Shown: positions 906-30,441 of the stretch, piece after piece
How the letters are laid out: each line of letters starts with the position of its first letter
Numbering within the stretch: the first letter of the stretch is position 1
Virus record (IMG/VR): IMGVR_UViG_3300044512_002795
Location: 1-32,367 of that record
Source of the DNA: a virus
Lineage: Duplodnaviria > Caudoviricetes
Strand: one strand, 5' to 3'
DNA: 32,367 nucleotides
Notes under the pieces: model-generated
What the model saw: only the letters and a program-made list of their open reading frames with translations
Database searches by the model: none
What the model was told of the DNA's origin: nothing
Position numbers and translations under genes: made by a program

Positions 906-3900
906 TTAATTATATACCGGAATGTATTTAACAGTTCCGTCTAAATCTATCGGTAACCACCCGTGAAAAGTTCTACCATCTGACGCTGTAGCAGTGTCCA
1001 AATTAGGGTTATTAATTTTTGCGGCAGGTCTTCCTGCCTGCGCGACACTATTAATAGTTAAAGTCCTATTAGCAGCAGCGCTTCCCCCCGCACTTAAATC
1101 ACCAGCTACAGTCGCATCTCCATTTACTTCTAATTTTACAGCAGGACTTGCAGTACCTATACCAATTCTATCAGTGCTTGCGTCAGCATAGAAAAGATTA
1201 ATGTCACTATCACCTCTTACATTAAAATCTATATTTTCTAGCCCCACATTGAAAGTCGTTGATACTCCTGCGTAAGTCGAGAGATAAACACTGCTACTAC
1301 CACTTGAATTATTTAACTGCAATCTAGGGCCGAGAGTGTTATCTACTCTAACGTAAAATGCAGTGCTAGAGTTTACAGGATTGTAAAGCCAATAAGTAGC
1401 GTATGCTTGAGACGCAGCATTTGTAACATACTGCGAAGAAAACCTGTGAGTGACAACTCCTGCATAATTTTTTAAAGCAAAAACCCCCTTAGTTCCTGAA
1501 ATAACACTGCCTTCAAGATCTTGAATTGTTAATGCTGTAGCATCAGGGTCGTCTGTTCCTATACCTATTTTTCCACTAGACCCTTGAAGATAAAAATCGT
1601 TTTTATTATATCTTCCACCTACAATTGTATTATCGGCAAAAACTTCAAACACAGGCAATCCCGCAGCATCATTTACCGACATTAATGAATCACTGAGGTC
1701 ATCGACAACTTCAAACAATGTTCCGTTTGTTCCATCGACTCTTAGCACTGAATCTCCAGAGGTAGAACCGACTATTTGTAATTTTGAAGTGGGGCTTGTT
1801 GTGTTGATTCCAACGTTACCGCTGGTATTAATACGCATTCTTTCTGCAGCATTAGTCGTATCGTAAAACCTTAGAGAGCTTGACCCATTAGTATTAAAAT
1901 CTATTCTAGGACTGCTACCTGTTAACTGTACATCATCAGTAATTAAAGCTTTGCCTACTACATGTAATTTTTGAGATGGACTTACTGTACCTATACCAAC
2001 ATTACCATTTTCTTGATAAATAACAGAATTACCTATAGTATCGCTATCTGTCCAAATAGATATATACCCTGTAGTTCCAGCTCCATCTACTGCCCCAGCG
2101 CCGATTGGTATTTCTATAACATTACCACTTGAATCTACTGCTAATCTCTGGGTAGCTGTACCCGTAAATGTTCCTGAACCATAAGCATTAAATTGTATCT
2201 GCCCATCACTATGAATACGCATTCTTTCAACGACTTGACTGTTGTATGGAGAAGTATAAAAAGTTAAAGCTCCAGATGGAGTAGTTGTGGTTGACCCATT
2301 CCCAAAGTCACTAACAGCTTCAATTTTTGCAACATCACGAACCCCTACACCAGAAGAATCTCCCAAGAAGAAACGAATCCTACCTAATCCATCTCCAACA
2401 TCCCAGCCAGTTTTTCCCTGTGTTGCCAAAATAATTTCACCGGGACTTATACTAGTTCCACCAGAGTATGTTCCTAGATACACTCCGTAATTGTTATTAC
2501 CCACACTAAAATTACTACCAGCTGCTTGTAACCATCCTTCATTGACAGTGTGACCTATGATTCTTACATCTCCATTAACATGTAATTTTTTAGTAGGATT
2601 AGTTGTACCTATACCAACATTACCTGTGCTACCGTCAATAGTTACTCGGTCAGTTTCATTTGTTTGTAATCGTAAATCACGAAGAAGAGAATTATGTCCA
2701 ACATACATGGACGTGCCGTCCAACGTCATATATCCTGTATAACCAGATCCTTGTATATTAAATTGACCATTACCGGACGAGTCGGGAGATATATTTGTAC
2801 CATTATTAATAAATACTCTACCTCCGTTAACTTCCAATTTTTGTGCTGGTAATGTTGTACCTATACCAACTTTACCGTTAGAATTAACGGTCATTATTTT
2901 GGTATCATTTTCAGATGCTAATTGTAATACACGTGTTGCATTAGCGGTAGAACCAGCTCTAATTAATAAACCTTGACCATCTAAGTTAGTGTTATAAATT
3001 CTTGATATTAAACCAGAACCAGCATCACTTGTTAATTCAAATTTATATGAAGGATCGATGCCTATACCAACATTACCACTCCCTAAAACTGTAACAAAAT
3101 CAGTACCACCATTTTCTCTCACAGATAACAATGGAACGGAATTACTCACCCCTCCTCCGGCTGTATCTATTATCAAACCACCAGATGTACCATTTCTGCT
3201 AATCTTAGGATATACAGTACCCCCAAAAAATTCTAATACACCACTGTTTGATATCCTTTGATTACCAAAAACTTCTAACTTTTGATTAGGACTTGTTGTA
3301 CCTATACCAACATTGCCCTCCATGCTGATCCGCATACGCTCCGACCAATCGGTTGTTGCATCTGCCGTGCCGTTTGTATAAAAAGCTAATCCACTTCTGA
3401 AATAATTGCCTTCACCAATTTGCACTATCCCAGCAGAGCGTTTTGAATAACCTCCATAATTTGGCTTCCATGTAATACCACTTCCTATAGTGTTTGAATC
3501 ACCAGCTGAATTACCATTAGTGGGGTCAAAATAAAGCTGAGCAGTTGAATTAGTAATATTTGAACCTCTAGTATCTATATTATCGTTGAATACGTGAAGC
3601 TTACTAATCGGACTTACTGTACCTATACCAACATTACCAGCAGAATCAATCGTCACTCTTGTAGTGTTGCTCGTCCCGAGTTTAATTGAACCAGCTTCTC
3701 TGTTGTTTAATGTGAATGTGCTACCACTAGCAACGAGAGCTGTTCCATCACTTGCTGTCGCGCCTGTTGTGTTATTTGTAAACTTTAATTCAGAATTAGT
3801 TGTATCATTAATATGTAAGCCTGTACCGCCTGATTGTAAGGCAGGACTTGCTGTACCTATACCAAGTTTTCCATACTGATAAGAAAACACTGACTCTTGT

Positions 3901-6900
3901 CCAGAAAATTCTACAACACCACTTACACTTCCAGTACCTAAATTTGTAAATAATACATTGTTAGCATATCCCTCAAATTGAACATGCGTAAATCCTGCTG
4001 CCCAAGTAGTAGAAGGAGATATTTCAATTGCATAATATTCAACAGAATTATAAGTCAACTCAACTAGTGTAAATATGGGGTGCCCATAAGTTGAATCATC
4101 AGTTCCCCAAGATTCTAAGCCTCCTGTAGCTAGTGGGGTTCCAGCATTATTAGTATAAAATGTAATTCTTGCACCACCAGAACCAGTAGCAGATGTGCCT
4201 ACCTGTCTCGCACCTTTTAAAACACCATCAAACCGAACATTGGTTTGAGTTTTTGCAGCTATTAAATAATAATTAACAACTGTTGACCCTGACCCTTGAT
4301 TTGATAAATATTTTAATACCCAAGAAGAAAAATCATCTCCAGTATGCAGGATTCCCGTGGTTGAATGAACATGTAGTTTTGCAGAAGGGGTTGCAGTACT
4401 TATTCCTACATTAGTTCCATTATCATAAATTAAAGAATTAGTTAAATCTGAATTAGCACCGTTAGACCATTTTGTGACATAGTTAGTTGTCCCGGACCCT
4501 GTAACCGTGTCACTTATATCACTTATAGATTTCCAATCAGTAGCAGATCCTGTAGATGTAAGAACTTGACCTGAAACTCCAGCGACGTTATTGGAATCAT
4601 AAAAAGCTCCAGTTAATCTTAAGTTCCCTTGAACGTGGAGTTTTTGAGAAGGCGTTCCTGTACCTATTCCTACAAGACCATCATTATAATATAAATCGTT
4701 GACTGCCCTCTGCCACTGATAATTTGCGCCTAACGAATGAGCGGTGCTATCAGCGTCACCATTATACACTGATGTAACACTGACAACTACAGTATAGTTG
4801 CTTGAGTGATTAGTGTAGACGGTAAAATTGTTTCCACTTACACTCAACTGTGGGTGATTACTACTACCACCACTTAGACTCACAGCTCTCAAAGACCATG
4901 CAGACGTATTAGCACTATAAACGCCGATATAAGTTGCTCCACTATCTGTGCTAGTACCAATAGTAGTTAACTCGAATATGTAATGATAATTACTTGATGC
5001 TGTTTGTCCATGGGCGGGGTTTAATGTGACTATTTTACCGTTTGATACTCCAGACCCAGTAGTAGTATAATTACCCCTATACCAGCCTCTGTTTGCATTC
5101 GAATATATACTGTATCCAGCTTCTTGATATATATCTCCATTGACATGCAGTTTAAAAAGTGGATTTGCTGTACCTATACCAACATTACCCGTAGAACCTT
5201 TTATTACTAAGTCATTCCTAGACGCACTAGCATCTAAGTTAATTTTAATTGTAGTAGCAGTTGAATTAGACCCAAACGTAGCGACTCCTGAATTATTTTT
5301 TACAACCGTATTTCCAAATTGACCTTCTGTTGAGGAATAAATTTTTCCAACAACATGCAAAGGATAACCCGGAGTTACTGTACCTATACCGACCCTACCA
5401 GAACCTTTAACTACTAAACCGGTTGTAGATCCATCTCTCTGATAAGCGTGAAGCGTGTTACCACTACCATCACTAGCCCCAACGGCTTTAACAACTAACC
5501 CTTGGTCAACATTTTGATTCCCTCCTGAAACAGTTTGGTTTACAAGTAGAGTAGGAAGATTTGTCGCAAGCCCTTGCTCGACATACGCAACTCCATTCGT
5601 AAATGCAGATGTACTTCTAACATCAAGCCTTGAGTTTGGACCTGTAGTACCTATACCAACATTACCAGAAGGGTCTATGGTCATAGCTTGATTGGTAATA
5701 CCTGTACCATAATTATTTGAGGTGCCAAAAGCTAGATAAGTCCCAGAGTTAGTGGAAAGACTGCCAATTTGGGAAAGATTCTTTGGGTAGGAACTTGAAA
5801 ACCCACCAAACCCAAGCAGCGACCAGCCAGTGGCTCCGCCCCAATTAGTAATTCTGACCCCAGCATTATTATCAGCGATAAAAGTCGTGGCGGAAGTATG
5901 GTCATGTATATCAAGCTTGCATTCTGGATCAGTAGTACTTATACCAACTTTACCATCATTATCTATGCGCATTCTCTCTGCAAAACCAGAAGTGGCTCCA
6001 GTAGAAAAAGCTAGAGCTCCATTTGGTAAAGTTGTTGTATCTTGCGCTACAGCTTTAATTGAAGCAATAGTACCTGCACCTGATCCACTAGAATCAGATG
6101 TCCTAAAATTGATAGTACCTACAGCTTCACTAGCAGTCCACGAACCATCTTTTGTACTGTTTAAAGTTACAATCGGAGCTGAGGCAGAAACATCTAAAAG
6201 AGAATTAGGACTTGTTGTATTTATACCAACATTACCACCAGACTGACTATTTAACGCCAGAGTTAATCCGTCAATTCTTGCGTCCACATAGGCACTTTCC
6301 GCATCATTTAACGCCGCTAAAGACGTAGTTGTGTTTGAAGGGTAACCAAATATCCAGTTTAAATTTGTACCGATATTAATATGAAATTTATTAGCTGGAA
6401 TTGCTGTACCTAGACCAACATTACCATTTACATCTATTGCTAGACCTCTTGTATTAACTCCCGCTCTAGCTCCAACATACAGAATATCTGAATTTCTGTA
6501 GATATTTGCAGAACTTCCACTAATTCCGTTATAAAAAGAAACAGCTCCTGTTGTTAGCCCATCATTTCCAATATGTAATCCACCTGTTTTTGCCGTCCAA
6601 TCGTAACCCGTTATAAAATGAGTAGAGTGAGTTTCACCGACTACCTTTAATTTATAGTTACCGGGATTAGTTGTACCTATACCAACATTACCTTGTACAA
6701 TTAAACCATTATCATATTTAGTAGTGTAATAACTGTCACCTATAGATACTCCGCCCACAACTCCAACATGTGATTTTCCGTAAGTTCCAGATCCCGGATT
6801 TAATACTATACCAGTGGACCAATTAAGCATTAATTGCTGGTAATTTGGAGATGACCAGCTACCACTTGACCGAAAAATTGCGTAGGAGTCACTGGTATGC

Positions 6901-8480
6901 CAGTAGATCCCCTGTTTGTTATCACTCGTTCCGCTACTAACTTGATCTCCGAATGTAATTTGACCGGAAGCGCTAACGTCTAATAGTCGTTGGGGATCTG
7001 TTGAATTTATACCAACATTTCCATCTGTATCGATACGCATTTTTTCATCGGAATCAATATCAAAATTAATTACCTTTGTTACTCCTGTTCCCCTACTTAA
7101 AGAATTTATAGTTGCGTAACTTGAGTCACCCCTTCCAAAAACAACAACACCAGCGTTATTTGGATCTGGACCATGAGATAGTTCCAAAAGGCTCAAGTTA
7201 GCACCTGTATCTGGTTTAAGTAACAATCTACTATAACCTTGTCCAGAAGCGCCTAATATTTCAATGGAACTAGATGTTTGAGATACCCTGCTGTCACCAA
7301 GAGAACTAGTACCATTCCAAAGGGGTAGTTTATTAATTGTCCCTGATCCAGTTATAACTGAGCTTGTCCCAAAAAATCTTTCTTTACCGACTCTAGCGTA
7401 TAAAGAGTTGTACCCCATACCTGTCCAATTTAATAAAACAATTGAAGCCCATTTTGCGCCAGCTGTAGGTGTGTATGTATAAGTACTTGTAACCCAAGTT
7501 GTTGAGATAGCTACATTAGTTTTCCAATCGGTCCTGCCAGAGGTGTCTTCTTGTACTACTGGGTTAGTGGCGCTACTAGACACTGCTATTTTACCATCAG
7601 GGAGTTCAGCATTATATTCGTATACTCTGGCATAAAAACCACTAGAAGTACTTGCAGAAGCTTTATATTGGACCCACAATTTCCATTGTTCGCCAGCCGA
7701 CTCATTAACACGAAACGCTGGGAAAGCCATACCGATATCATCATCTGTAGATGAAACAAGTTCAGTAGCTCTTTGAGCTTCATTATATTTGACTGTTGAA
7801 TAATTACTGTTACTATATGCCGGAACAGCTCCTCCATCTGAAGGCCCAGAAAATCTGTAATTGGTTGATTTTGTTTCTCCAACTATTTCTAATTTTGTGG
7901 AAGGATTAGTTGTACCTATACCAACTTTACCATCACCAGTAATAACCATTCTTACATTTCCTGTACCTTTATCAGCTCCAGTTGCAGTATGAAAAACAAT
8001 ATCTGCTGCATTATTTGGATAGGTCGTTTGAATGTGGAGAGTACCAACACTATTATCGTACCACAATTGTGCGCCCTCGCCAGTAATTGGTCCACTTGAT
8101 TTTAAAGTAATTATTGGATCGCCTGAGTTAGATTCGGTTTCTAAAATTATTGATGGAACAGCTTTATCTATATGTAAACTAGCATTAGGATTAGTTGTAC
8201 CTATACCAACATTACCATCAGTGTGTTTAACTGCGATACGGTTAGTATTTCCATGTAAAAATCTAAAATCTTGAGCTGCAGGAAAAGAAAGGAAACTGTT
8301 ATTATTGTCCCGCATGAGCAAGTAGCCCAACATGGTGGTGTTATCAGTTTTATAAAAATAATTTATAGAGTAGTCGTTGCTAACTTGCAGTTGAGTCTTT
8401 GATCGAATGTTTGAATCAAATGTCGCCGAGCTATTCCCTGTTAAGGTTCCATTTATAGTTGTAGTTACTAGTGATGCCAT
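906..8480 (-). CDS. giant modular tail fibre / adhesin protein (2524 aa, GNVGIGT repeats)
   Basis: Long G/S/T/N-rich ORF with over 20 (R)MxIxxxGNVGIGTTxPxxKLxV repeats, a CBM-like insert, and a C-terminal GWLPIDLDGTVKYIPVY tip typical of trimeric fibres. Confidence 0.85.
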   Translation of the reverse strand: MASLVTTTINGTLTGNSSATFDSNIRSKTQLQVSNDYSINYFYKTDNTTMLGYLLMRDNNNSFLSFPAAQDFRFLHGNTNRIAVKHTDGNVGIGTTNPNASLHIDKAVPSIILETESNSGDPIITLKSSGPITGEGAQLWYDNSVGTLHIQTTYPNNAADIVFHTATGADKGTGNVRMVITGDGKVGIGTTNPSTKLEIVGETKSTNYRFSGPSDGGAVPAYSNSNYSTVKYNEAQRATELVSSTDDDIGMAFPAFRVNESAGEQWKLWVQYKASASTSSGFYARVYEYNAELPDGKIAVSSSATNPVVQEDTSGRTDWKTNVAISTTWVTSTYTYTPTAGAKWASIVLLNWTGMGYNSLYARVGKERFFGTSSVITGSGTINKLPLWNGTSSLGDSRVSQTSSSIEILGASGQGYSRLLLKPDTGANLSLLELSHGPDPNNAGVVVFGRGDSSYATINSLSRGTGVTKVINFDIDSDEKMRIDTDGNVGINSTDPQRLLDVSASGQITFGDQVSSGTSDNKQGIYWHTSDSYAIFRSSGSWSSPNYQQLMLNWSTGIVLNPGSGTYGKSHVGVVGGVSIGDSYYTTKYDNGLIVQGNVGIGTTNPGNYKLKVVGETHSTHFITGYDWTAKTGGLHIGNDGLTTGAVSFYNGISGSSANIYRNSDILYVGARAGVNTRGLAIDVNGNVGLGTAIPANKFHINIGTNLNWIFGYPSNTTTSLAALNDAESAYVDARIDGLTLALNSQSGGNVGINTTSPNSLLDVSASAPIVTLNSTKDGSWTASEAVGTINFRTSDSSGSGAGTIASIKAVAQDTTTLPNGALAFSTGATSGFAERMRIDNDGKVGISTTDPECKLDIHDHTSATTFIADNNAGVRITNWGGATGWSLLGFGGFSSSYPKNLSQIGSLSTNSGTYLAFGTSNNYGTGITNQAMTIDPSGNVGIGTTGPNSRLDVRSTSAFTNGVAYVEQGLATNLPTLLVNQTVSGGNQNVDQGLVVKAVGASDGSGNTLHAYQRDGSTTGLVVKGSGRVGIGTVTPGYPLHVVGKIYSSTEGQFGNTVVKNNSGVATFGSNSTATTIKINLDASASRNDLVIKGSTGNVGIGTANPLFKLHVNGDIYQEAGYSIYSNANRGWYRGNYTTTGSGVSNGKIVTLNPAHGQTASSNYHYIFELTTIGTSTDSGATYIGVYSANTSAWSLRAVSLSGGSSNHPQLSVSGNNFTVYTNHSSNYTVVVSVTSVYNGDADSTAHSLGANYQWQRAVNDLYYNDGLVGIGTGTPSQKLHVQGNLRLTGAFYDSNNVAGVSGQVLTSTGSATDWKSISDISDTVTGSGTTNYVTKWSNGANSDLTNSLIYDNGTNVGISTATPSAKLHVHSTTGILHTGDDFSSWVLKYLSNQGSGSTVVNYYLIAAKTQTNVRFDGVLKGARQVGTSATGSGGARITFYTNNAGTPLATGGLESWGTDDSTYGHPIFTLVELTYNSVEYYAIEISPSTTWAAGFTHVQFEGYANNVLFTNLGTGSVSGVVEFSGQESVFSYQYGKLGIGTASPALQSGGTGLHINDTTNSELKFTNNTTGATASDGTALVASGSTFTLNNREAGSIKLGTSNTTRVTIDSAGNVGIGTVSPISKLHVFNDNIDTRGSNITNSTAQLYFDPTNGNSAGDSNTIGSGITWKPNYGGYSKRSAGIVQIGEGNYFRSGLAFYTNGTADATTDWSERMRISMEGNVGIGTTSPNQKLEVFGNQRISNSGVLEFFGGTVYPKISRNGTSGGLIIDTAGGGVSNSVPLLSVRENGGTDFVTVLGSGNVGIGIDPSYKFELTSDAGSGLISRIYNTNLDGQGLLIRAGSTANATRVLQLASENDTKIMTVNSNGKVGIGTTLPAQKLEVNGGRVFINNGTNISPDSSGNGQFNIQGSGYTGYMTLDGTSMYVGHNSLLRDLRLQTNETDRVTIDGSTGNVGIGTTNPTKKLHVNGDVRIIGHTVNEGWLQAAGSNFSVGNNNYGVYLGTYSGGTSISPGEIILATQGKTGWDVGDGLGRIRFFLGDSSGVGVRDVAKIEAVSDFGNGSTTTTPSGALTFYTSPYNSQVVERMRIHSDGQIQFNAYGSGTFTGTATQRLAVDSSGNVIEIPIGAGAVDGAGTTGYISIWTDSDTIGNSVIYQENGNVGIGTVSPSQKLHVVGKALITDDVQLTGSSPRIDFNTNGSSSLRFYDTTNAAERMRINTSGNVGINTTSPTSKLQIVGSTSGDSVLRVDGTNGTLFEVVDDLSDSLMSVNDAAGLPVFEVFADNTIVGGRYNKNDFYLQGSSGKIGIGTDDPDATALTIQDLEGSVISGTKGVFALKNYAGVVTHRFSSQYVTNAASQAYATYWLYNPVNSSTAFYVRVDNTLGPRLQLNNSSGSSSVYLSTYAGVSTTFNVGLENIDFNVRGDSDINLFYADASTDRIGIGTASPAVKLEVNGDATVAGDLSAGGSAAANRTLTINSVAQAGRPAAKINNPNLDTATASDGRTFHGWLPIDLDGTVKYIPVYN

Positions 8481-11400
8481 TTAAATCCTTTTTTTAATTT
8501 CTTGCAGTTCTTTATACAGCTCTTTAAAGCCCCCTAAGAGAACAGTTACTGCTCTGCTGTAATTTACACCCGAAGGGTTTCCGTTTTCATCTTTTTCGAC
8601 TAGTTCTGGGAATAGTTCTTCTAACTCTTCGGCGATTAAACCGATTTCTTTTTTATCACTTCCCTTCTTGTTGTATTTTACTGGTCTTATTTTATTTATT
8701 TTATCTATACTTGGCGTGAAATTCTCAATATTTTCTTTAATTGCTAAACTCGAAGCTTCGGTTAAAGTTCCTGAAAAATAACCATTTCCAGCTACTTTTA
8801 ACATGTAACTAGAGTCTGGTGCGGTATTTATAGCTACGGTGCTATTGTCATCTCGAATTTTACCTATTCCAAGTGTTTCAGTATCTGTCCACCTTGCGAT
8901 ATAATCATCAGTGCCACTGCCATCAACAGCGCCAGAACCTATGTCAATTTCTATAACATTTCCGCTAGCATCTACTGCTAACCTTTGAGTAGCTGTTCCT
9001 GTAAAAGTTCCGGCACCATAATCATGAAGTTGAAGTTTTCCAGTATAATGTAGCTGAAGCTTGGTGTTAGCGAGATATTCAGCTTGACCACCCGCTTGAT
9101 CATAACCAATATTCCAACTATTGAAATTTCCAGAGTAATTCATTCCACAGAACCACTCTTCTCCAGAATAAGTGGAGTCGGTATAAAAAGTTCCAATACC
9201 TCGGCCTTCGTAGCCCTCCATTAAGATTTGAGCCGTAGCTGCGGGAGCTCCTGCGGTATTCGTGGCTCTTATTGTTAAAATAGTAGATGTCTGAGTAGAG
9301 TCTCCTATAACTGCGCTACCGTTTACATGTAATTTATTACCGGGAGTTGTAGTACCTATACCAACATTCTGAGAAGCATCTATAGATAAAGCTTTTGCAC
9401 CATTTGCGTAAAAATGAAGCTCCTGCCATTGACTACTTTGGTAACCACCAAAATGAATAAGGTTAGCACCGTCCCACTTTAATAAATCATATGCATTTAA
9501 ATTTAAAGCATCATTACCCGAACCTGCATCAATCCTAACTTTACCTGCTACTTGTAATTTACCTCCTGTTGGACTTGGAGTACCTATACCTACATTACCA
9601 GAAGCATCGATACGCATTTTCTCATCAGCTGTCGTTCTGAATGCCATGTACCCAGCTTCTGAGTTTTCAATTACTGTGTTTAGGCCGGTTTGTGTTAAAA
9701 GAAACCCGTCACTGTCACCAGTACCAGTAGTACTATTAACTAACTGAATAACAGGGTTGGATGCTTTATATAATGTAACTGGTCTCTGAGGATTAGTTAT
9801 ACCTATACCAAAATTACCACCTTTATCAATGGTCATTCGAGGGCTAGATCCTTCCAACCATTGAAAGGCAGGTTGAGAAGCGCCAACCGCAATCGTGCCT
9901 ACTTCAAAACCCATAACCGGTTCAGCTGTAGTAGAGGTAGTGTTCCCAGTGGATGAATACAATGTTAGACCTGACTGAGTTGCTCCATTATAGTAACCAG
10001 CAATTTTAGCTGAAAAACCAGCAGCATTAGCATAATTATTCTCGATTCTCAGGTAACTATTTGCATCAGCACTGTTACGAAACAACGAATGAATTGCTCC
10101 TCCAGCGACACTTGCACCGACAACATCTATTTTTGCGCTTGGATTAGTTGTACCTATACCAACATTACCATCAGCAGCAATACGCATTTTTTCTGTTGCA
10201 TCTGTCGAGTTGGTACCTGCTGTACCGAAAGTTAGATAACCTTGCCTACCATACGTCTCAGTCGCATATCCCTTTACATAAGATGATATGAATGCTCCGT
10301 CTGCGTCATTACTGTAATTTTCAAAGCCTCCAATTAGATCGTCTGGCTGGACACTTGTATCGTTACGTTGTAAACGTATGATGGGTAAACTTGTTGAACC
10401 CCCAGAAAGGTGCAATTTAGTCTGGGGATCATTTGCGCCGATACCAACGTTGCCTGCTGAAGTTACAGTTAATTTGCGACTGCCATCGTAACCTACATAC
10501 CAATCTCCACCGTATTGCGATCTATTGTAATTAAATCCAGCCTCGTATTCAGTACCTGACCCTCCGTAACTGTGAGCAGTAAACTGCCATCCATTGCTTT
10601 GCTGAAATTTAATTTTTGAGTCGTTTGTATTTACGTTTGAACTGTATAATGCAATGGACGATTCTGAAGACGCACCTCCTACAACATGCAGTGTCCCGTC
10701 TGGAATTTGTGCACCTATACCAAATTTACCATCCCTATCTACAGTTACCTGATAACTACCATTTCTTGCGATGTGAAAATTATGTATTCCCGAAGTAGAA
10801 GAATTTCTATCAAGTACGAACCTATGAGTTTCAGCTGCACTTTCATCTTGGTAAGCTGTAATAGTATTAGTAAGATCATTAACTTTGAAACTTATGCTTT
10901 GATTAGCACCACGACCTACTCTTAATCTTTCCTCACTGCCGTCACCATAAGTAGGATTAGCTAAATTATCATATATAGTTACTTGGCCACTATTTACGTG
11001 AAGTTTCGCTCCGGGATTAGTTGTACCTATACCAACATTACCAGCAGAATCAATCCTTACAGCTTCATCCTGAGTGTTTGTTTCAATAGCAATTTCTGCG
11101 CCTGTGTTATTAGTAGCTATTCTCAAAAGATTGACACTCATCTTTGCGTCTAAGAACGCGAACTCAGACCCTCCATTAGACAGGGATAAATACGAATTAT
11201 GAGCTGTTGATTGGCTATCAATAATAACTTGAGCACGACCAGAAGTGTTCTGAAAGAGCGCAGTGTTTAAGTCAATATTTTGTACAACATGTAGTTTGTC
11301 TGAAGGACTTGCTGTACCTATACCAACACTGCCACCAACAGACATGTTCCCTGAAGTTAACTCAACAATTGCTTTTTTATATGCAGTTCTTGCATTACCG

Positions 11401-14400
11401 CTTTGATTATAAAGCGTTTTAGATCCTAAATTATTTGTGTTAGTTCCACCAGTAAATTCTATAGTATTAAGACCGTTATCTGTGCTAAGACCCCACTCCA
11501 CATAAGGTTCATAATCGGCAAAAATTATTGTATCTCCTTCAGTGGTACCCTGTTGAATTGCGATTGCAGATTGTTCTGGATTTACTCCTGCAGATGATAC
11601 TAATAAAGCAGGTGTATTAGCTGAACTATTTCCAGCGATACCAGCTTTTATCATTCCGTTGACATCTAATTTACTACCGGGACTTGTAGTACCTATACCG
11701 ACATTACCACCAGAGGTAATGGTCATTCTTATTGTACCAGCTGAACCGGTTGCAAAATTGGTACTATTTTCTTGTAGGTTTTTAATGTCAAAAGAACCAT
11801 CAGCGTTATGTGCTAAATATGCATAGTCGCCTCCAGAGCCATCCCCGTTAGCGGCTCCATCTAACTCAAGTAAAGCACGAGCTCCATTACTACTACCAAC
11901 AAATAAAGACTGTTGACCAGAGCCATATATATGTAAACCAGCTTCAGGATTAGTTGTACCTATACCAACATTACCACTCGCAAGAAGGGTCATCTTAATA
12001 TCGTTATCAATCCTCCATTCAGTTTTTGTGTTTTCTACATGTCGAATTGCCCACGATCCCCCTCCGTCCAATAACCCTATATTCTTACCTCCTTCTGAAC
12101 TTGAATTAGCGTAAACGTATCCCCATATAGCTCCACTATAACCCATCAACCTAAGACCTATTGACCCCTCATCATGTGTAGAAAAATCAAAATAGTCGCC
12201 TTGTTGATTTTGGAATTTTAATGAATCAGTAGTTGAGAGCCACTGAATATAAGCTCTATTAGTAGTACCTTCTTGAAAACGTATATATGGACTAGACGAT
12301 CCGGTTAATACCAATTTGGCATCACTTGACCCGCCTAATGTAGCTAAGTAACTCGTATTTACTGCTTGAGCTCCAATTCTACTAGAGGCGTAAATTGTAC
12401 CCTGAGTATGCAATGTATAACTTGGGGTTGTTGTCCCTATACCAACATTACCATCATTTAAAACAGTTAAAGCTGCCTTAGGAGAACCTCCATTGTAAAC
12501 ATCTAAGTTAAAAGAATTATTAGTTGCGGTTCGTATCCCCCAATATCCAGCGCTTCCTATCATATTGTGGGTTACTGTTCCAGCTATATTCGTCGCCAAT
12601 AATGTGTCTGATTTCGCACTATTAGCGTAAATTGTTCCAGCTTCAACATGTAATTTTAATAGAGGACTTACAATACCTATACCAACATTACCAGATGAAT
12701 CAATAACCATCCTATCTACGCCTGCAGAAGCATCTCTGAATCTAAAGTTGAGATCGTCTGTCCCAGTGCCTCCTGCGAATATAGCATAAGCTCGATCCGC
12801 TCCTCTTGTGGTTTTGATTACGAGACCAGCATACTCACTGTCGTTGGTGGGTTCTATGTATAATTGGCCATTCGCAGATTGATCGCCTTTTATATTCAGT
12901 TTAGTAATCGGAGATGAAGTACCTAAGCCTAAGTTCCCATTAGTGTTTAAATAGAAATCGTTTTGATTATATCTGCCTGCAACTATGTGATTATCTGCAA
13001 ATACCTCAAATACAGGTAACCCAGCCGCATCATTTACCGACATCAAAGAACCACTTAAATCATCAACTACTTCGAATAAGGTTCCATTTGTTCCGTCAAC
13101 TTTTAATACCGAAGCGCCAGAAGTTGAATCTACAATTTGGACAGTTGCAGCAGGAGTTGCGGTACCCACCCCTAAATTACCATTAGTGTTATCCCAATGA
13201 AAATTGTTGTTATAAGAAATTGTGTCAGTGTCTGTCCAATATGTTACTTTATTAGCAGCGCCTGATCCATCGACGGGACCAGAACCTATAGGAATTTCAA
13301 TTACATTTCCGCTGGAATCTACTGCTAATTTCTGAGTAGCTGTGCCCGTAAATGTTCCTGAACCATAAGCGTTAAATTGTACTTGTCGAGTAGAGGCAAA
13401 TGAAACGCTAACATCACCGTTATAATCATTTTTTCTGATCTTTAAGGTAGTGTCTCCATTATCTATCCCCATAACCCAAGCCTGTGTTCCAGACTCATCT
13501 AATTTAATGTATGTGCCAGCTGTACCAAGCCCACTAAATCTTGCTATGTTTGTTGCTGAAGATGAAACGTGTAATGAGGTAACAGGATCATCCGTACCTA
13601 TACCAACATTACCACCATAAGGATTTAATGCTATATCCCAATCTGCTGTTTGTGTACTATTTGTTACTTGAATACCAATAGCATTACCATTATTGACTTG
13701 TGCGAAAGTCATATTGGTTGAATTACTATCATGAGGTTTAAGCTTAAGGACACTATATGTATCCATTAAGGCTTTAGTTGTAGCATCACCAGTCCCAACG
13801 GGACCAAAGTATCCTCTACCAGCAACTTGCAACTTGCCAGATGTAGGATTAGTTGTACCTATACCAACATTACCGTCTTGTAAAATTGTTAATCTTTCAG
13901 CTCCAGTAGCTGATCGGATAGCAAAATCCCATACCCCTGATGTTTGCCCTCCTTTTAAAGTCCATTTATTATTACCTTGTTGATTAAATTCTAATGAAGC
14001 ACCATAACCTGTATTATTTCTATCTAACCGTAGGTTTGCGTCTGAACCATACAAGTGAAGCAGTTGATCTGGACTTATAGTACCTATACCAACCTTGCCA
14101 AGTGCGTCAATAGACATCCGCGCATTCAAATTGTTATCACCATCATCCGTATAAAAATCTATCTGACCAGCACTTAGCTTAACACTAGATTCTAAATCTC
14201 TTCTTACTTGAATCTTAGCAACAATAGAATCGTCTCGATGATTAAAAAATTCTATAGCCCCTAATGTACCGCCTCCACTTGAGTCACGACCCCCTATTTG
14301 TATGGTAGAACTTTGGTTAGCTGAAAGGGTGTCACTACCGACTCTTAACTTTACGGTGCTAGTGTTTTCATTGGTATAAACTTGAGAAACAGTGTTACCT

Positions 14401-17400
14401 ATACCAACATTACCACCGTTAGTTATACGAACTCTTTCATATTCAGTATTACTAGTTTTTGTGCTGAATGTTAGATTACCATTTACATAAGCAGATCCTT
14501 GAGCTTCAACTAAAGATCTTATACGAGAACCGATTCGAACAGTACCATCTGTCGCTGATCCTAAAAACATTAACTCACCTAATTCATCTCCTACTGTTAA
14601 AGTACCATCAGCAGGTTTTTTAACAAATCTAATTTCACCTGATTCGTTGTCGTTATTTGTATTAACAATTCTTAAATCTGGATCTGTTGACGTTGAAGAT
14701 TCTAAATGTAATAAAGATTCAGGACTTGCAGTACCTATACCAACATTACCACCAGATAAAATAGAAACCTTTTCGGTTCCATTTGTAAAAAACCTAAAAG
14801 CATCAGTAGAATGATCATAATATATCCGACCTGCATTATTACTATTTTGGTCCCCAAAAACTATTCTACCAGAGTATGCAGAATCAGATAAAATCTGTAT
14901 ACCATCAATTCCATCTCCTCGTATTGCAAGAGAATAAGCATTATCTACAGTACCGATTCCAGATCCTGAATCAATTTGTAATTTAGTATCAGGACTCGTC
15001 GTACCTATACCAACACTCCCGTACTCAATGACTGTTTTTGTTATATTGCTTCCACCAAGTCGTGTTGTATTAGAACCTAAACCCTGTGCATCCTTACCAA
15101 TGACGATCTCACCACTTGCCCCTTCTGTTCCATCAACTGCATACCCTAAATAAATCCCGTAGCTCGAATTTGTTAAATCTCCCGTAGCAACTCTTTGTGA
15201 TCCCGCTGCATAACCTATGGCGATGTTATAACTACCAGTTGTCAGGTTTGTTAACGCAGCGTAACCCAACGTCGTATGACCAGCAGGCGAAGTATGAGCA
15301 TCTAAAGAGTATGTCCCGACAATTGTGTTGCTGCTACCTGTAGTATTAAGTCTTAAAGCTCCTGCTCCTAAAGCAGTGTTGTTTATCCCACTATTAGTTA
15401 ACAACCCACTATCGTCCCCTATAAAAGTATTACGTGAACCACCAACCAATTGACCACCAGCATTCATGCCGACTATAGTGTTTTTATAACCAGTCGTGAT
15501 ATCTTCACCTGCTTGAAAACCTATTGCTGTGTTACTGTAACCAGTGGTCAATGCATTTAAGACCTGATAACCAAATCCTGAATTGTAACTGCCGTGAGAT
15601 ACGGAAGTGGCAGTAGACCCCATCGATAAATTACCAGCAACAAGTCCGACAAATGTATTGAAACCTGCTGGTACAGCAGTGTCCCCTGTTGGATGCTGGT
15701 AATTATGGATGAATCGAGATGTGTCTTTATATATTATCCCGGTTGTAGTATTGGTGGTATTTGGTAGTCGAATACTACCTGTCAAGTGAAGTTGTTGAGC
15801 CGGACTATCTGTTCCTATACCAATATTGCCATTACCCTTAATAGTAAACTTCTCAACTACTGAAGCTCCTTCTCTTACTCGGATTTGGAATAATTTGTCT
15901 GGTACTTTAAAATTATCAGACCCTGTTCCAGACCCATCATATTGGTAAAAATCCCATCTGTTAAGAGGCGCTGTTGAGCTAGAGTTTAAATTGATAAATC
16001 TATGTAATGTACTAGTGCCAGCAGCTTCTGATGCAAAGATTAGAATATTACTCTGTGTTGGTCTTGCAAAGAAACTAAGTGAAGAAAGATCTGTAATATC
16101 ATAACCCGTAGTAGCATTATATGATGCTAAAGCGTCAGCAGTCCATGAAGTATCATTTGTATTTGATATGATTAATGCTTTTGATGTTAAGCCACTTAAG
16201 CTATTTCCCGAAGGGCTTAATTCAAGCCTTGCAGCAGGATTATTTGTACCTATACCAATATTGCTATTATTTTGAACTATTACAGAGTCGCTCAGTGCTG
16301 TACCAGTTGAATCCCACTTTGGTATATATTGCGATGTACCACTACCAGTTACTTGAGTGCTTACATCTCTTGTTTGAGTGATTGTTCCAAGAGAGGTAGG
16401 AAAACTTACATCCCATCCATCTATCCAGTTTGATATACCAGTATTTAAAAAACCAAAAGATGCACCTCTTACCACAACATATGGATATGTCCAGCTGCTA
16501 CTTGCGCCGTTTGAACCTTTACTAATATAAATAGCGCATTTACTACCATCATGTCCAAACTGTACTTTATATGTTGTACCATCATTTCCAGCTAACACCA
16601 TTGCGGTTGTGTTGTGCCAGCTGGAGTCGCCGCTATAATTATAACCTGCAACTACAAATGTCTTTGCTTTATTGTCTTGATACTCAAAGACATCAATACT
16701 GAACTGCATCATTGTGTTAGTCCAGCTTTGAGGTAATGTAATTTTTATATATCCAGTTACAGGGGTAGAGGAAGAACCTATCTTACCGCCCCCGGGAAAC
16801 GCTACATAAGATGGATTATAGTTTGCAGTACTATTAGCCCCGAAACCGTCACTACCTCTAACCCGCATGTTACCATAAATTTCGAGCTTGTCATTAGGGC
16901 TTGTTGTACCTATACCAACATTACCATCAGAGCCAATACGCATTTTTTCTGTAAGTAATGACGATCCATTCTCTCTTATTAAAAATCTTAAAGCCCCGTC
17001 ATAATTACCACTCGTATTATTCTCCTTAACTCCTTGTATACCAGCGAGAAATCCAATGACTCCGCCACTTGTATATCTCCCACCAAAGCTAATACCACCA
17101 CCATTATTATCTGTATCAAATGCAGTAACGTTATCTATAACCCTGAGCATCGAAGGGTAATTCGAGTTATACTGTTGTCCGAATATATCAAGTTTTGTAG
17201 CTGGAGTTACTGTACCTATACCAACATTACCAGATGAATCAATAGTTACTCTAGTGGTAGCAGATGTTCTAAAGAACATTTTTCCTGCTTCTCCGTTTTC
17301 GATATACGAATCAACCCCGCTCTGAGTAAGCAGCATACCGTCTGCTGCTGCTGTCCCAGTTGTTGAATTGACGAGTTGTATAACTGGGGTTGATGCTTTG

Positions 17401-17657
17401 TATAATGTAACTGGTCTCTGAGGATTAGTTGTACCTATACCTACACTACCATTCTTCCAAACCATGGATAAAGTGCCAGTGTCATATAAAGATGTATATG
17501 AATTAGCCCCTCTACCTATAAAATTATTACCACTAAAAGTATCAAAATAATACCATTTAGCGGCACTATCTGACCTAAACCCGTAATTATCTGCCGAAAC
17601 AGAACCATCAACATCTAACTTAGAATTAGGGTTTGTTGTACCTATACCAACATTACC
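1987..17657 (-). repeat. dispersed in-frame direct repeat family, core GGTAATGTTGGTATAGGTAC (encodes GNVGIGT)
   Basis: Exact 20-mer (plus strand gtacctataccaacattacc) starts at 1987, 2605, 3619, 5170, 5647, 6673, 8197, 10150, 11023, 11956, 13594, 13855, 14731, 16906, 17212 and 17638. Exact 29-mer ggattagttgtacctataccaacattacc starts at 2596, 6664, 8188, 10141, 11014, 11947 and 13846. About 20 further near-copies exist. Confidence 0.95.
8481..8753 (-). other. peptidase S74 (endosialidase-type) auto-cleaving chaperone domain
   Basis: S-x4-K dyad (SSLAIK; canonical SDxRLK), GLIAEE (canonical GxIAQE), VNY and a terminal coiled coil. Confidence 0.85.
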
Positions 17658-18455
17658 ATCTTGCAGGATAGTAACAGCTTCAATTTGAGATGCGGCAGTG
17701 ACGTTATCAGTAAAAATTGACAGGGCATTTAAGTTTCCGTCTCTGGAACCCATATATTTAAGGCTGAATCCAACATTACCACTATCAGTCGTTCCACTAT
17801 TATTCGAAGAGGAGCCATCCACTCTTAATAATGTAATATCATTACCCCCACCACCCGGACCAACTCTTATAGCTGTTCCGCCGTTAGCTTGGTGTAAGCG
17901 AAGAGTATTGCTTGTGCTTGAGGTAGTTCCTCCTACATCTAATTTATAAGACGGACTGTTTGTACCTACGCCAACATTGGTACCATTATCATATAATACC
18001 CCTGATGTGAGAGTATCTTCATCAGCCCAGCGAGCTACATAATTAGCAACACCAGAACCTCCTACGCCAGATAAAACGTCTTCTATAGCTTTCCAATTAA
18101 CACCAGTAGTACCTTCGTTTGTAAGCACCATTCCATCATTACCAATGGAATTATTTGAGTCGTAAATAATACCAGAAATACCCAACTTATTAACATTAAG
18201 TCGGTTACCATCTGTAAAAGTTAAATCAGCGTCCCCACCAAAAGATCCTGCATCATTAAATTGGACGGAGTTAAGTGGAGCGCCGGGAAGAGCATCGGTT
18301 CCAGCTCCAGTAATCTCGACCCAAACCCCATCTCTTTTTACGTATAGCTCTAGGTTGCCAGTATCGATAAGCACAGCGCCATCAAGAACGCCGGTAGGTT
18401 TAGTTTCTCCCGCTCCTATTGTAAATCTATCTCCTGCGTATCTTGTAATTGCCAT
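8481..18455 (-). CDS. giant modular tail fibre protein (3324 aa) with C-terminal peptidase S74 intramolecular chaperone
   Basis: Roughly 30 GNVGIGT-type repeats and an NTAIG-type beta-repeat block. The C-terminus SSLAIKENI...IRPVKY...EIGLIAEELEELFPELV...GVNYSR...LLGGFKELY matches the S74 chaperone pattern. Confidence 0.9.
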   Translation of the reverse strand: MAITRYAGDRFTIGAGETKPTGVLDGAVLIDTGNLELYVKRDGVWVEITGAGTDALPGAPLNSVQFNDAGSFGGDADLTFTDGNRLNVNKLGISGIIYDSNNSIGNDGMVLTNEGTTGVNWKAIEDVLSGVGGSGVANYVARWADEDTLTSGVLYDNGTNVGVGTNSPSYKLDVGGTTSSTSNTLRLHQANGGTAIRVGPGGGGNDITLLRVDGSSSNNSGTTDSGNVGFSLKYMGSRDGNLNALSIFTDNVTAASQIEAVTILQDGNVGIGTTNPNSKLDVDGSVSADNYGFRSDSAAKWYYFDTFSGNNFIGRGANSYTSLYDTGTLSMVWKNGSVGIGTTNPQRPVTLYKASTPVIQLVNSTTGTAAADGMLLTQSGVDSYIENGEAGKMFFRTSATTRVTIDSSGNVGIGTVTPATKLDIFGQQYNSNYPSMLRVIDNVTAFDTDNNGGGISFGGRYTSGGVIGFLAGIQGVKENNTSGNYDGALRFLIRENGSSLLTEKMRIGSDGNVGIGTTSPNDKLEIYGNMRVRGSDGFGANSTANYNPSYVAFPGGGKIGSSSTPVTGYIKITLPQSWTNTMMQFSIDVFEYQDNKAKTFVVAGYNYSGDSSWHNTTAMVLAGNDGTTYKVQFGHDGSKCAIYISKGSNGASSSWTYPYVVVRGASFGFLNTGISNWIDGWDVSFPTSLGTITQTRDVSTQVTGSGTSQYIPKWDSTGTALSDSVIVQNNSNIGIGTNNPAARLELSPSGNSLSGLTSKALIISNTNDTSWTADALASYNATTGYDITDLSSLSFFARPTQSNILIFASEAAGTSTLHRFINLNSSSTAPLNRWDFYQYDGSGTGSDNFKVPDKLFQIRVREGASVVEKFTIKGNGNIGIGTDSPAQQLHLTGSIRLPNTTNTTTGIIYKDTSRFIHNYQHPTGDTAVPAGFNTFVGLVAGNLSMGSTATSVSHGSYNSGFGYQVLNALTTGYSNTAIGFQAGEDITTGYKNTIVGMNAGGQLVGGSRNTFIGDDSGLLTNSGINNTALGAGALRLNTTGSSNTIVGTYSLDAHTSPAGHTTLGYAALTNLTTGSYNIAIGYAAGSQRVATGDLTNSSYGIYLGYAVDGTEGASGEIVIGKDAQGLGSNTTRLGGSNITKTVIEYGSVGIGTTSPDTKLQIDSGSGIGTVDNAYSLAIRGDGIDGIQILSDSAYSGRIVFGDQNSNNAGRIYYDHSTDAFRFFTNGTEKVSILSGGNVGIGTASPESLLHLESSTSTDPDLRIVNTNNDNESGEIRFVKKPADGTLTVGDELGELMFLGSATDGTVRIGSRIRSLVEAQGSAYVNGNLTFSTKTSNTEYERVRITNGGNVGIGNTVSQVYTNENTSTVKLRVGSDTLSANQSSTIQIGGRDSSGGGTLGAIEFFNHRDDSIVAKIQVRRDLESSVKLSAGQIDFYTDDGDNNLNARMSIDALGKVGIGTISPDQLLHLYGSDANLRLDRNNTGYGASLEFNQQGNNKWTLKGGQTSGVWDFAIRSATGAERLTILQDGNVGIGTTNPTSGKLQVAGRGYFGPVGTGDATTKALMDTYSVLKLKPHDSNSTNMTFAQVNNGNAIGIQVTNSTQTADWDIALNPYGGNVGIGTDDPVTSLHVSSSATNIARFSGLGTAGTYIKLDESGTQAWVMGIDNGDTTLKIRKNDYNGDVSVSFASTRQVQFNAYGSGTFTGTATQKLAVDSSGNVIEIPIGSGPVDGSGAANKVTYWTDTDTISYNNNFHWDNTNGNLGVGTATPAATVQIVDSTSGASVLKVDGTNGTLFEVVDDLSGSLMSVNDAAGLPVFEVFADNHIVAGRYNQNDFYLNTNGNLGLGTSSPITKLNIKGDQSANGQLYIEPTNDSEYAGLVIKTTRGADRAYAIFAGGTGTDDLNFRFRDASAGVDRMVIDSSGNVGIGIVSPLLKLHVEAGTIYANSAKSDTLLATNIAGTVTHNMIGSAGYWGIRTATNNSFNLDVYNGGSPKAALTVLNDGNVGIGTTTPSYTLHTQGTIYASSRIGAQAVNTSYLATLGGSSDAKLVLTGSSSPYIRFQEGTTNRAYIQWLSTTDSLKFQNQQGDYFDFSTHDEGSIGLRLMGYSGAIWGYVYANSSSEGGKNIGLLDGGGSWAIRHVENTKTEWRIDNDIKMTLLASGNVGIGTTNPEAGLHIYGSGQQSLFVGSSNGARALLELDGAANGDGSGGDYAYLAHNADGSFDIKNLQENSTNFATGSAGTIRMTITSGGNVGIGTTSPGSKLDVNGMIKAGIAGNSSANTPALLVSSAGVNPEQSAIAIQQGTTEGDTIIFADYEPYVEWGLSTDNGLNTIEFTGGTNTNNLGSKTLYNQSGNARTAYKKAIVELTSGNMSVGGSVGIGTASPSDKLHVVQNIDLNTALFQNTSGRAQVIIDSQSTAHNSYLSLSNGGSEFAFLDAKMSVNLLRIATNNTGAEIAIETNTQDEAVRIDSAGNVGIGTTNPGAKLHVNSGQVTIYDNLANPTYGDGSEERLRVGRGANQSISFKVNDLTNTITAYQDESAAETHRFVLDRNSSTSGIHNFHIARNGSYQVTVDRDGKFGIGAQIPDGTLHVVGGASSESSIALYSSNVNTNDSKIKFQQSNGWQFTAHSYGGSGTEYEAGFNYNRSQYGGDWYVGYDGSRKLTVTSAGNVGIGANDPQTKLHLSGGSTSLPIIRLQRNDTSVQPDDLIGGFENYSNDADGAFISSYVKGYATETYGRQGYLTFGTAGTNSTDATEKMRIAADGNVGIGTTNPSAKIDVVGASVAGGAIHSLFRNSADANSYLRIENNYANAAGFSAKIAGYYNGATQSGLTLYSSTGNTTSTTAEPVMGFEVGTIAVGASQPAFQWLEGSSPRMTIDKGGNFGIGITNPQRPVTLYKASNPVIQLVNSTTGTGDSDGFLLTQTGLNTVIENSEAGYMAFRTTADEKMRIDASGNVGIGTPSPTGGKLQVAGKVRIDAGSGNDALNLNAYDLLKWDGANLIHFGGYQSSQWQELHFYANGAKALSIDASQNVGIGTTTPGNKLHVNGSAVIGDSTQTSTILTIRATNTAGAPAATAQILMEGYEGRGIGTFYTDSTYSGEEWFCGMNYSGNFNSWNIGYDQAGGQAEYLANTKLQLHYTGKLQLHDYGAGTFTGTATQRLAVDASGNVIEIDIGSGAVDGSGTDDYIARWTDTETLGIGKIRDDNSTVAINTAPDSSYMLKVAGNGYFSGTLTEASSLAIKENIENFTPSIDKINKIRPVKYNKKGSDKKEIGLIAEELEELFPELVEKDENGNPSGVNYSRAVTVLLGGFKELYKELQEIKKRI

Positions 18456-29928: not shown

Positions 29929-30441
29929 ATGGGGGAAATAAAAAATACAATTACTAATTTAGCTAATGTAAGTGAGAACTTCATTAAGCTGTCTCCAGAA
30001 TCTATAGATAAAGGACAGGTAGGTGCAGTCTTAGAAAGTTTACTTGGAGAGTATGGATGGATTCTTTTAATAGCTATTTTGACTATAATAGCCAAGGACA
30101 TGATTATAAATTTTGTTCAAGGATTACTCGTATTTATGGGGAATGATTTTAACAATGATGATATTATTTATATATCAGGTCGTCAAGCTCGTATAGTTCG
30201 AGTAGGAGTTCGTAATACAGTTTTTTACATGTCAGATCGACGCAGTAAGATGTTAGTACCTAACGAGCAGTTAAAACACCTTACTATTGAGAAAGCCCTC
30301 CCTAAAAACGGAGGACAGCCTTATTTACCCAAAGCTAGCGACCCCGGCTTTGTTGGATGGGAAGAAGTTCCACTGCCTCCTGCTCCAACTCAAGTTGAGG
30401 TAATAGAAAAGGCTGACAAACGGAAAAGACCTAAAAAATAA
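29929..30441 (+). CDS. MscS-like (small mechanosensitive channel domain) membrane protein
   Basis: TM segment WILLIAILTIIAKDMIINFVQGLLVF followed by FNNDDIIYISGRQARIVRVGVRNT...MLVPNEQL, the MscS TM3 plus beta-domain pattern. Confidence 0.7.
   Translation: MGEIKNTITNLANVSENFIKLSPESIDKGQVGAVLESLLGEYGWILLIAILTIIAKDMIINFVQGLLVFMGNDFNNDDIIYISGRQARIVRVGVRNTVFYMSDRRSKMLVPNEQLKHLTIEKALPKNGGQPYLPKASDPGFVGWEEVPLPPAPTQVEVIEKADKRKRPKK

Follow-up and report, generated by a model that had tools for sequence, protein, structure and literature searches.

Fibre modules bounded by a GNVGIGT-coding repeat are reordered within and between two giant genes of an uncultured aquatic phage, probably by homologous recombination

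The IMG/VR phage record IMGVR_UViG_3300044512_002795, analysed here over its whole length of 32,367 nucleotides (nt) and referred to as the window, contains two giant genes, A and B, which are predicted to code for fibres and consist of in-frame modules separated by copies of a motif, GNVGIGT, repeated at the protein level as well as at the DNA level. Comparison with related metagenome contigs demonstrates, beyond inference, that these modules are shuffled: the relatives differ in both the order and the content of their modules, and modules cross from one gene to the other. The explanation we consider probable, short of certain, is that fibre modules are exchanged, lost and reordered in frame at the repeat, most likely by homologous recombination of the RecA/UvsX type, and that the crossovers likely homogenise the silent positions of the repeat.

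In addition to TerL, an ERCC4-type nuclease and PhoH, the 32-kb virus record encodes the two giant open reading frames (ORFs) on the minus strand, both of which match the tail-fibre PHROGs 9942 and 18345. The genes, with their lengths in amino acids (aa), and the repeats they carry are the following.

906-8480, minus strand: gene A, a single ORF of 2524 aa, predicted fibre, with 22 copies of the motif.
8481-18455, minus strand: gene B, a single ORF of 3324 aa, predicted fibre, with a fixed N-terminal anchor, 27 copies of the motif and a C-terminal S74 chaperone.
1987-17657, minus strand: 16 exact direct copies of a 20-mer, with their 5' bases at 17657, 17231, 16925, 14750, 13874, 13613, 11975, 11042, 10169, 8216, 6692, 5666, 5189, 3638, 2624 and 2006.
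Between 1172 and 17981, minus strand: 33 variant copies of the motif.
2082-2197, also 13266-13381 and 8871-9045, minus strand: a paralogous segment, beginning at a degenerate junction missed by the motif pattern.

The 20-mer, GGTAATGTTGGTATAGGTAC, occurs exclusively on the minus strand, nine of its exact copies being located in gene B and seven in gene A; one 29-mer occurs in seven exact copies, likewise all in one orientation, some 32-mers are found twice, and no 40-mer is repeated in genes A and B. The initial annotation, made from the sequence of the window, had counted the same 16 exact 20-mers and seven exact 29-mers across the two genes. With a looser pattern, the number of copies rises to 49. 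The modal six-codon spelling is used by 18 of the 24 exact GNVGIG copies, for 0.21 copies expected if codons were used as in the remainder of these genes (binomial P = 9e-33) and 0.31 copies when the next-base context is included (P = 2e-29), so that codon bias fails to explain the spelling. Outside the motif all four glycine codons are in use, as had been claimed (GGT 0.43, GGA 0.31, GGG 0.14, GGC 0.12). Conservation of the third base along the motif, calculated from 42 near-canonical copies, peaks in its middle (0.79, 0.81, 0.88, 0.98, 1.00, 0.93, 0.69). The divergent copy at 1801-1820 was read correctly in the initial annotation, and encodes GNVGIN instead of GNVGIG, while the core GGTATAGGT is indeed kept where the neighbouring residues have changed (3853, 5380, 10711, 14080, 15001). 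The description of the intervening segments holds in that they are mostly unrelated, but not in the range of 200-800 base pairs (bp) given for them: inter-motif spacing reaches about 900 bp, and a few modules are diverged paralogues, with DNA matches of 116-242 nt at 71-84%. Elsewhere in the window a single copy of the motif occurs, in the collinear neighbouring gene of 343 aa, with ATT GGA in place of ATA GGT.

The relatives used for comparison were metagenome contigs or loci, labelled L001 and so on, and a 170-kb record rated complete, G001. In the upstream genes, L001 and L002 share 90% identity with the window across 11,529 nt (29489-17961), and L003 shares 94.5% across 6,540 nt (24488-17967); in all three the identity ceases where gene B has its first motif. 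Beyond this anchor, gene B of L002 is made of window modules in a different order, two of which come from gene A, and additional orders occur in L011, L012, L015, L022 and L023, with movement between A and B in both directions. The addition, loss or swapping of modules in frame at the repeats, initially proposed from the window, is supported by this reordering and transfer between the two genes among the relatives. The 256 motif-bounded segments recognised in 12 sequences, a few of which derive from the 343-aa neighbouring gene, fall into 169 families, including 119 singletons. When a window module recurs in one of six relatives, the module that follows is the same as in the window in 11 of 44 cases, a count in which L002 and L022, like L011 and L012, are not independent of each other, given the long runs they have in common. 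The mobile and the fixed parts of the two genes are listed below.

3851-5189, minus strand: three-module block of gene A, which L022 carries in its gene-B orthologue, and L011 and L023 in gene A with other surroundings, at 87-92% nucleotide identity.
13594-13874, minus strand: single mobile module of gene B, present from motif to motif in L002, L006/L010 and L012 with different neighbours, at 88-92% nucleotide identity.
10122-11730, minus strand: four modules of gene B, separated and reordered in L002/L022, L011/L012 and L023, at 79-93% nucleotide identity.
17961-18455, minus strand: N-terminal anchor of gene B, fixed, the identity of the relatives ending at the first motif (17981).
8481-9371, minus strand: final module of gene B with its S74 end, fixed, the identity of the relatives beginning at motif 9371.
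8598-8747, minus strand: match to the Peptidase S74 intramolecular chaperone (gene B residues 3237-3286, PF13884, E 5.6e-10).
906-1121, minus strand: C-terminal end of gene A, retained with the downstream flank in L022 (92% over window positions 1121-1).

The last two modules of the block 3851-5189 also occur in L002, with ends at motifs 5189/4679 and 3872, and single modules of this block are up to 99% identical in L023. The ends of the four-module region coincide with motifs 11708, 11333, 11042, 10730, 10454 and 10169. At the 3' end of gene B, L011, L012, L021, L022 and L023, all retrieved with this segment as a query, are 87-95% identical to the window from positions 9366-9368. No S74 domain was detected by Pfam in gene A.

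The breakpoints in these homologues are non-random with respect to the repeat, as the check suggested in the initial annotation now establishes. In nine loci, with the motif masked from -9 to +33 so that it could not itself attract alignments, 91 of 100 block ends (41 of the 46 distinct ones) were located at most 25 nt from the mask, versus a fraction of 0.525 for 240 ends of simulated random chimeras (P = 1.3e-7), this null being high because short truncated pieces escape detection. One of the five distant ends corresponds to the start of gene A, two occur in modules containing the paralogous segment that starts at the degenerate junction, and the other two are unexplained. This segment (the 2082-2197 family) is the site of several of the off-motif breakpoints. 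Modules were covered as wholes in 50 of 58 matches (21 of 25 distinct ones), versus 0.457 under the null (P = 9e-5), the segment lying across the gene boundary being left out, as were matches running off contigs. Across 209 junctions, the codons preceding the motif track the upstream module (79 pairs) and those from about codon 7-10 onward track the downstream module (79 pairs), codons 2-6 being weakly or not linked to either. Owing to this switch of allegiance the seam has to be placed inside the repeat, and the change of ancestry is located within the core of 20-30 bp.

The motif is likely to represent a boundary in the protein structure as well. The array matches Bd2133 from Bdellovibrio (PDB code 8OND) at the motif with an E value of 9e-9, and 8OML is also aligned at the motif; the initial annotation had named Bdellovibrio fibre adhesins as an example of known GNVGIGT/S74 mosaic fibres. 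In the MAT (mosaic adhesive trimer) fibres, according to the main text of PMC10769870, capping loops with the consensus V-G-G/N-pi-X-X-P-X-X-X-L delimit trimeric beta-helix segments, and exchange of tips between MAT proteins is shown. If the motif is such a capping loop, a crossover occurring there should preserve both the reading frame and the fold. The modules range in size from 60 to 300 aa; a Pfam search with 15 of them returned one match, below the cut-off, and an Atlas search with one module gave scores of at most 0.84, with one cluster containing CBM_4_9 in 10% of its members, to be taken as a lead only. The single-sequence fold of one 303-aa module reached a predicted local distance difference test (pLDDT) value of 30. 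A module of gene B rich in Asn/Gly short repeats (window 15051-15788, minus strand) has many distant homologues among the fetched loci (84 tblastn pieces) and may resemble the head of a left-handed beta-roll adhesin.

The protein motif is very common, with an estimated 1,400 or so stretches in IMG/VR and 3,300 in GTDB, and its spelling was surveyed in 39 locus rows with at least six copies each, among which overlapping loci of one contig are partly repeated. In the clade of the window, silent homozygosity amounts to 0.77-0.96, versus about 0.4 expected. Depending on the lineage, the preferred spelling ends with ATA GGA (L110, L016, L018) or contains GTA GGT ATT (L221, L124, L135), and little or no homogenisation occurs in L141, L148 and L133; the protein motif, therefore, does not force the codons, in line with what the variant copies had first suggested. 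Cellular arrays are strongly homogenised in 2 cases out of 18 and hardly so in 12. Such lineage-specific spelling fits concerted evolution. A toy model with crossovers in the repeat, replacement of modules and neutral silent sites, run with one seed per setting, gave a homozygosity of 0.5-0.85 at the two lower mutation rates, as compared to 0.25 for the module bodies and about 0.25 without recombination; an earlier run that had not equilibrated showed no homogenisation, and a smaller, longer run homogenised. As separate observations, the GNVGIG arrays of the Patescibacteria contigs L277 and L302 show strong homogenisation, the prevailing spelling being C/G-rich (in L277, 11 of 15 copies are identical), and in L108, L148 and L181 the third bases of the motif are richer in C/G than the AT-rich rest of the phage genes.

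With respect to the machinery, the complete record G001, whose TerL is 90% identical to that of the window, carries several such fibre genes together with a RecA/UvsX protein (Pfam RecA, E 1e-17; PHROG UvsX-like, 5e-33). Among its 138 listed ORFs of 100-1000 aa, 120 were searched with Pfam, which also revealed a PD-(D/E)XK nuclease and an AAA ATPase with a RuvB C-terminal match, and 30 of these with PHROGs, which yielded a UvsX-like recombinase, an exonuclease and endonuclease VII, the best match of the ATPase being a clamp loader. The initial annotation had recommended a search for recombinases, of which G001 offers the RecA/UvsX type, and for orphan cassettes, which were found neither in the window nor in G001. 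An 89-aa ORF of G001 (L248:6993-7262, plus strand), located far from the fibre genes, combines APEP repeats with several words of the form GNVG(A/V)G; considered as an orphan cassette it was rejected, since these are motif-like words only. The two ends of G001 (3-496 and 169913-170406) are 90% identical over 494 nt within a fibre gene, so that the assembly may represent a circle joined up across two variants of a module. Low-identity tandem repeats (65-75% over 100-400 nt) occupy positions 162278-166049 of G001, directly upstream of more fibre motifs.

Taken as a mechanism, the repeat would serve as the seam for ordinary homologous recombination between fibre modules, presumably carried out by a RecA/UvsX-type protein of the phage, with co-infecting relatives and the second fibre gene as the probable donors. 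Repeated crossovers would homogenise the silent sites of the repeat as a by-product, and the homogenised repeat might in turn ease subsequent pairing. The varied modules would be selected through their binding to host surfaces, and the phage could thereby keep rebuilding its host-binding fibres.

Several results weigh against this explanation. The exact identity extends over just 20-32 bp, which is short for an exchange of the RecA type, whose minimum is about 25-50 bp of identity. The window fragment does not extend to the replication genes, the recombinase being that of G001; G001 itself, despite its recombinase, varies its glycine codons and possesses a much less homogenised repeat. Degenerate junctions, expected to be frozen, were kept in 7 of 34 cases versus 2 of 39 for the canonical ones, a non-significant difference (P = 0.07; P = 0.47 at the level of junctions), which gives no support to DNA identity as the factor governing how often exchange occurs; such identity can be a by-product of crossovers, and junctions may change without it. 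The homozygosity reached by the toy model was only about 0.4 when the mutation rate was highest. Most importantly, the isoleucine of the motif is encoded by ATA in 28 of 28 copies in the window, 33 of 33 in G001, 33 of 34 in L110 and 15 of 16 in L252, and neutral turnover should have allowed this codon to drift; its persistence could result from a slow flow of modules throughout the group or from selection on the DNA. Finally, the data consist of contigs, among which no recombinant molecule or circle was found.

The persistence of ATA is also the starting point of an alternative which we regard as unlikely, namely that the core is a selected DNA site, either recognised or nicked by a protein of the phage or the host, or kept for the sake of compatibility in recombination. 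The codon-locked core would then be a dedicated coding "att-like" seam common to a whole group of large aquatic phages, depending on a factor outside the known recombinase families or on compatibility selection, and a population-wide library of well over 100 fibre modules would thereby serve to diversify host recognition combinatorially. In this respect, ATA is near-invariant in distant members of the group while other silent sites vary, and whole modules are hardly shared: the arrays of G001, L110 and L252 have at most one whole module in common with the window clade at the DNA level, and G002, which contains L252, is 41% identical in a 624-aa protein beside TerL. Three other arrays avoid ATA entirely (0/27, 0/27 and 0/17 copies), although it represents 33-34% of the isoleucine codons elsewhere in their genes (33-46% when the arrays rich in ATA are included). 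One C/G-rich spelling recurs in Patescibacteria arrays as well as in phage genes that are AT-rich, and the shortness of the exact identity also suits a recognised site. However, the consensus varies between lineages, and the motifs heading orthologous modules are silently no better conserved than the module bodies (0.748 vs 0.755). Six-frame searches identified no tyrosine recombinase (PF00589) in three records including the complete G001 (control positive in 14 of 14), and none occurs among the 16 proteins of the window; neither a serine resolvase (PF00239) nor a reverse transcriptase (PF00078) was found in five records each, of which only G001 is complete, the control for the latter being positive in just 3 of 14. 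No evidence for a dedicated shuffling machinery was thus obtained from the window, the relatives and the complete G001, and the word "system" used in the initial annotation is too strong for that reason. Five copies of the repeat formed no stable hairpin (z -0.61 to 1.06). A pooled covariation between the third bases of the Val and Thr codons, which would have suited an attC-like hairpin, disappeared within contig clusters (z 0.8, or 0.3 without the largest cluster), so that this candidate was abandoned; between clusters the covariation is significant (P = 0.0002) but equalled by other pairs of positions, e.g., V3/G6 (z 3.6), the apparent effect being due to the small number of shared spellings.

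A second alternative, to which we attach a somewhat smaller chance, dispenses with any role of the DNA identity: breakpoints would arise by any route, such as template switching or illegitimate or slipped recombination, those located in the capping loop would survive because the protein folds, and the shared spelling would reflect joints copied when modules were duplicated. The coincidence of the motif with the structural delimiter of the solved MAT fibres agrees with this idea, as do the degenerate junctions, which change nearly as often as the canonical ones and one of which harbours several off-motif breakpoints, and the many arrays with little homogenisation. Against it, motifs of the window located between unrelated modules are silently 0.69 alike, close to the 0.755 of orthologous module bodies and far from the value of about 0.38 expected by chance; since the module bodies are unalignable while the motifs are alike, an old duplication cannot account for the shared spelling. 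The switch of ancestry, moreover, falls inside the core.

It is very improbable that the spelling is kept for the purpose of translation, e.g., as a pause at the module border aiding the folding of the trimer, with shuffling as an incidental matter. In its favour, ATA is all-or-none at one position per lineage, and two of the common spellings contain, at different places, TAGGT, which may resemble the core of a ribosome-binding site; against it, other lineages lack the TAGGT feature or a fixed spelling, and G001 encodes only two transfer RNAs, tRNA-Arg and tRNA-Cys.

That the different orders are assembly chimeras joined through the short repeats of mixed populations is the least credible explanation and can practically be set aside: as noted above no 40-mer is repeated, 27 of the 49 junctions of the window are bridged with at least 31 nt on each side by contig pieces from public runs (36 of the 64 pieces listed, contigs and not raw reads), separately assembled contigs share long module runs, with L002 and L022, and also L011 and L012, agreeing on orders other than that of the window, and relocated modules are mostly 80-95% identical instead of 100%. 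In favour of chimeras, the material consists of contigs, the remaining 22 of the 49 junctions are unbridged by the pieces listed, and contig joints at motifs have short sides of 20-46 nt that were flagged as ambiguous, these joints not being counted as proof of current recombination. Of the 24 loose contig ends listed (out of 84), 22 are found between -35 and +25 relative to the start of a motif, a zone that covers 17% of the genes. In any one contig, the order as a whole could nevertheless combine several co-occurring strains.

Cultured phages are all distant from this one, with 24-26% identity for the best matches of TerL. Gene B was found, whole or in part, in 20 of the 21 public runs listed, the labelled ones being estuarine, marine or aquatic, and runs X1-X4 contain 91-94% of its words. 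Directly upstream of TerL, an ERCC4/XPF-type nuclease gene (window 25691-26629, minus strand; PF02732, E 4e-9), syntenic in G001, could act on branched DNA before packaging or on recombination flaps. Two other genes of the window are read from the strand opposite to the main one, namely those for a DUF6582 protein whose N-terminal half is highly charged (30490-31053, plus strand) and a small mechanosensitive-channel beta-domain protein (29929-30441, plus strand). In G001, a gene with a Tubulin/FtsZ GTPase domain (69811-71115, i.e., L245:12811-14115, plus strand) is located between the RecA-like and DnaB genes, a large block of genes for glycosyltransferase, GDP-mannose dehydratase, epimerase and radical SAM proteins occurs at about 55800-67000 and 79000-91000, and the genome also has genes for DNA polymerase III alpha and for a tail tip of the lambda type, as well as for tail-tip protein L and NlpC/P60-JAB.

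The variation on the presumed receptor side of a large uncultured aquatic phage can arise by the wholesale reordering of dozens of pooled modules, to the point that phages 90% identical in their core genes have almost no module order in common. In the array, concerted evolution driven by short-homology crossovers inside a coding sequence can be measured in a natural setting; the array also explains the fragmentation of such genes in metagenome assemblies, and marks natural, presumably fold-safe joints in fibres of the S74/MAT type. We predict that arrays engaged in active shuffling could be recognised quickly by their homogenised spelling.

Repeat-bounded cassettes or the targeted variation of receptor-binding genes are known from integrons, from shufflons and other invertible tail-fibre segments, and from diversity-generating retroelements. 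Unlike integrons, the arrays are associated with no IntI-type tyrosine recombinase or attC-type hairpin in the material searched, and their cassettes are in-frame parts of one ORF. Unlike shufflons, all 16 exact copies are direct and on one strand, in keeping with the negative searches for PF00239 (0/5) and PF00589 (0/3). Unlike diversity-generating retroelements, no reverse transcriptase was found (0/5), and the variation affects the order of modules instead of consisting of point changes. In phages of Streptococcus thermophilus, the collagen-like repeats of the antireceptor are recombination hot spots. There, as described in the available text of PMC5601072, such repeats separate the domains of the host-range gene, which are few and are delimited by a motif different from the GNVGIGT of the present arrays.

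Closer parallels exist in the literature, which was covered mostly without subscription papers and supplements; within it, no many-copy, in-frame and silently homogenised seam was encountered and the string GNVGIGT was absent, and the paper on TIM5-like phages (PMC10087341) contains nothing on fibres. The PeSLs of the large lytic phages RB49 and phi1 are dispersed direct repeats that shuffle modules by recombination and can excise circles (PMC2839356), but, as presented there, these are intergenic promoter/terminator elements flanking whole genes, unlike the present coding repeat with its cassettes of protein modules. Short conserved stretches of DNA or peptide around the receptor-binding domains of tailspikes have been proposed as hotspots of recombination (PMC10408124; bioRxiv 10.64898/2026.05.12.724579); in the portions available, one or two of them flank a domain, at 63-81% DNA identity and, in the preprint, within the first 100 residues, unlike the many-copy in-frame array within one gene described here. 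The MAT proteins of Bdellovibrio (PDB codes 8OND, 8OML and 8OJN) share the motif, the beta-helix segments, the S74 and non-S74 forms and the evolutionary exchange of tips, but these are bacterial surface proteins, and the main text of PMC10769870 mentions recombination in its methods only and no shuffling; the present genes, by comparison, lie beside TerL in a virus record and not, like those of MAT proteins proper, on a bacterial chromosome as surface-protein genes.

The nearest precedent is provided by the T-even phages, in which distal tail-fibre and gp38 adhesin segments are exchanged at conserved motifs (PMC3157838, citing Tetart 1996, 1998). In both cases, as far as that account extends, conserved motifs divide variable segments devoted to host recognition (predicted fibres, in the present one), and exchanges occur in or near the motifs. 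The T-even phage possesses its own homologous recombination; for the present phage, RecA/UvsX is encoded by the relative G001, in a region beyond the 32-kb window. The exchange described in PMC3157838 takes place between allelic adhesins, and synonymous identity is not mentioned in the text available; here, in contrast, 49 seams are distributed over two genes of 2,500-3,300 aa, modules are reordered across genes, and paralogous seams are silently homogenised. Motif-mediated exchange in adhesin genes is already established, and what is unusual in the present arrays is their scale, the reordering of modules across genes and the concerted evolution of the seam.

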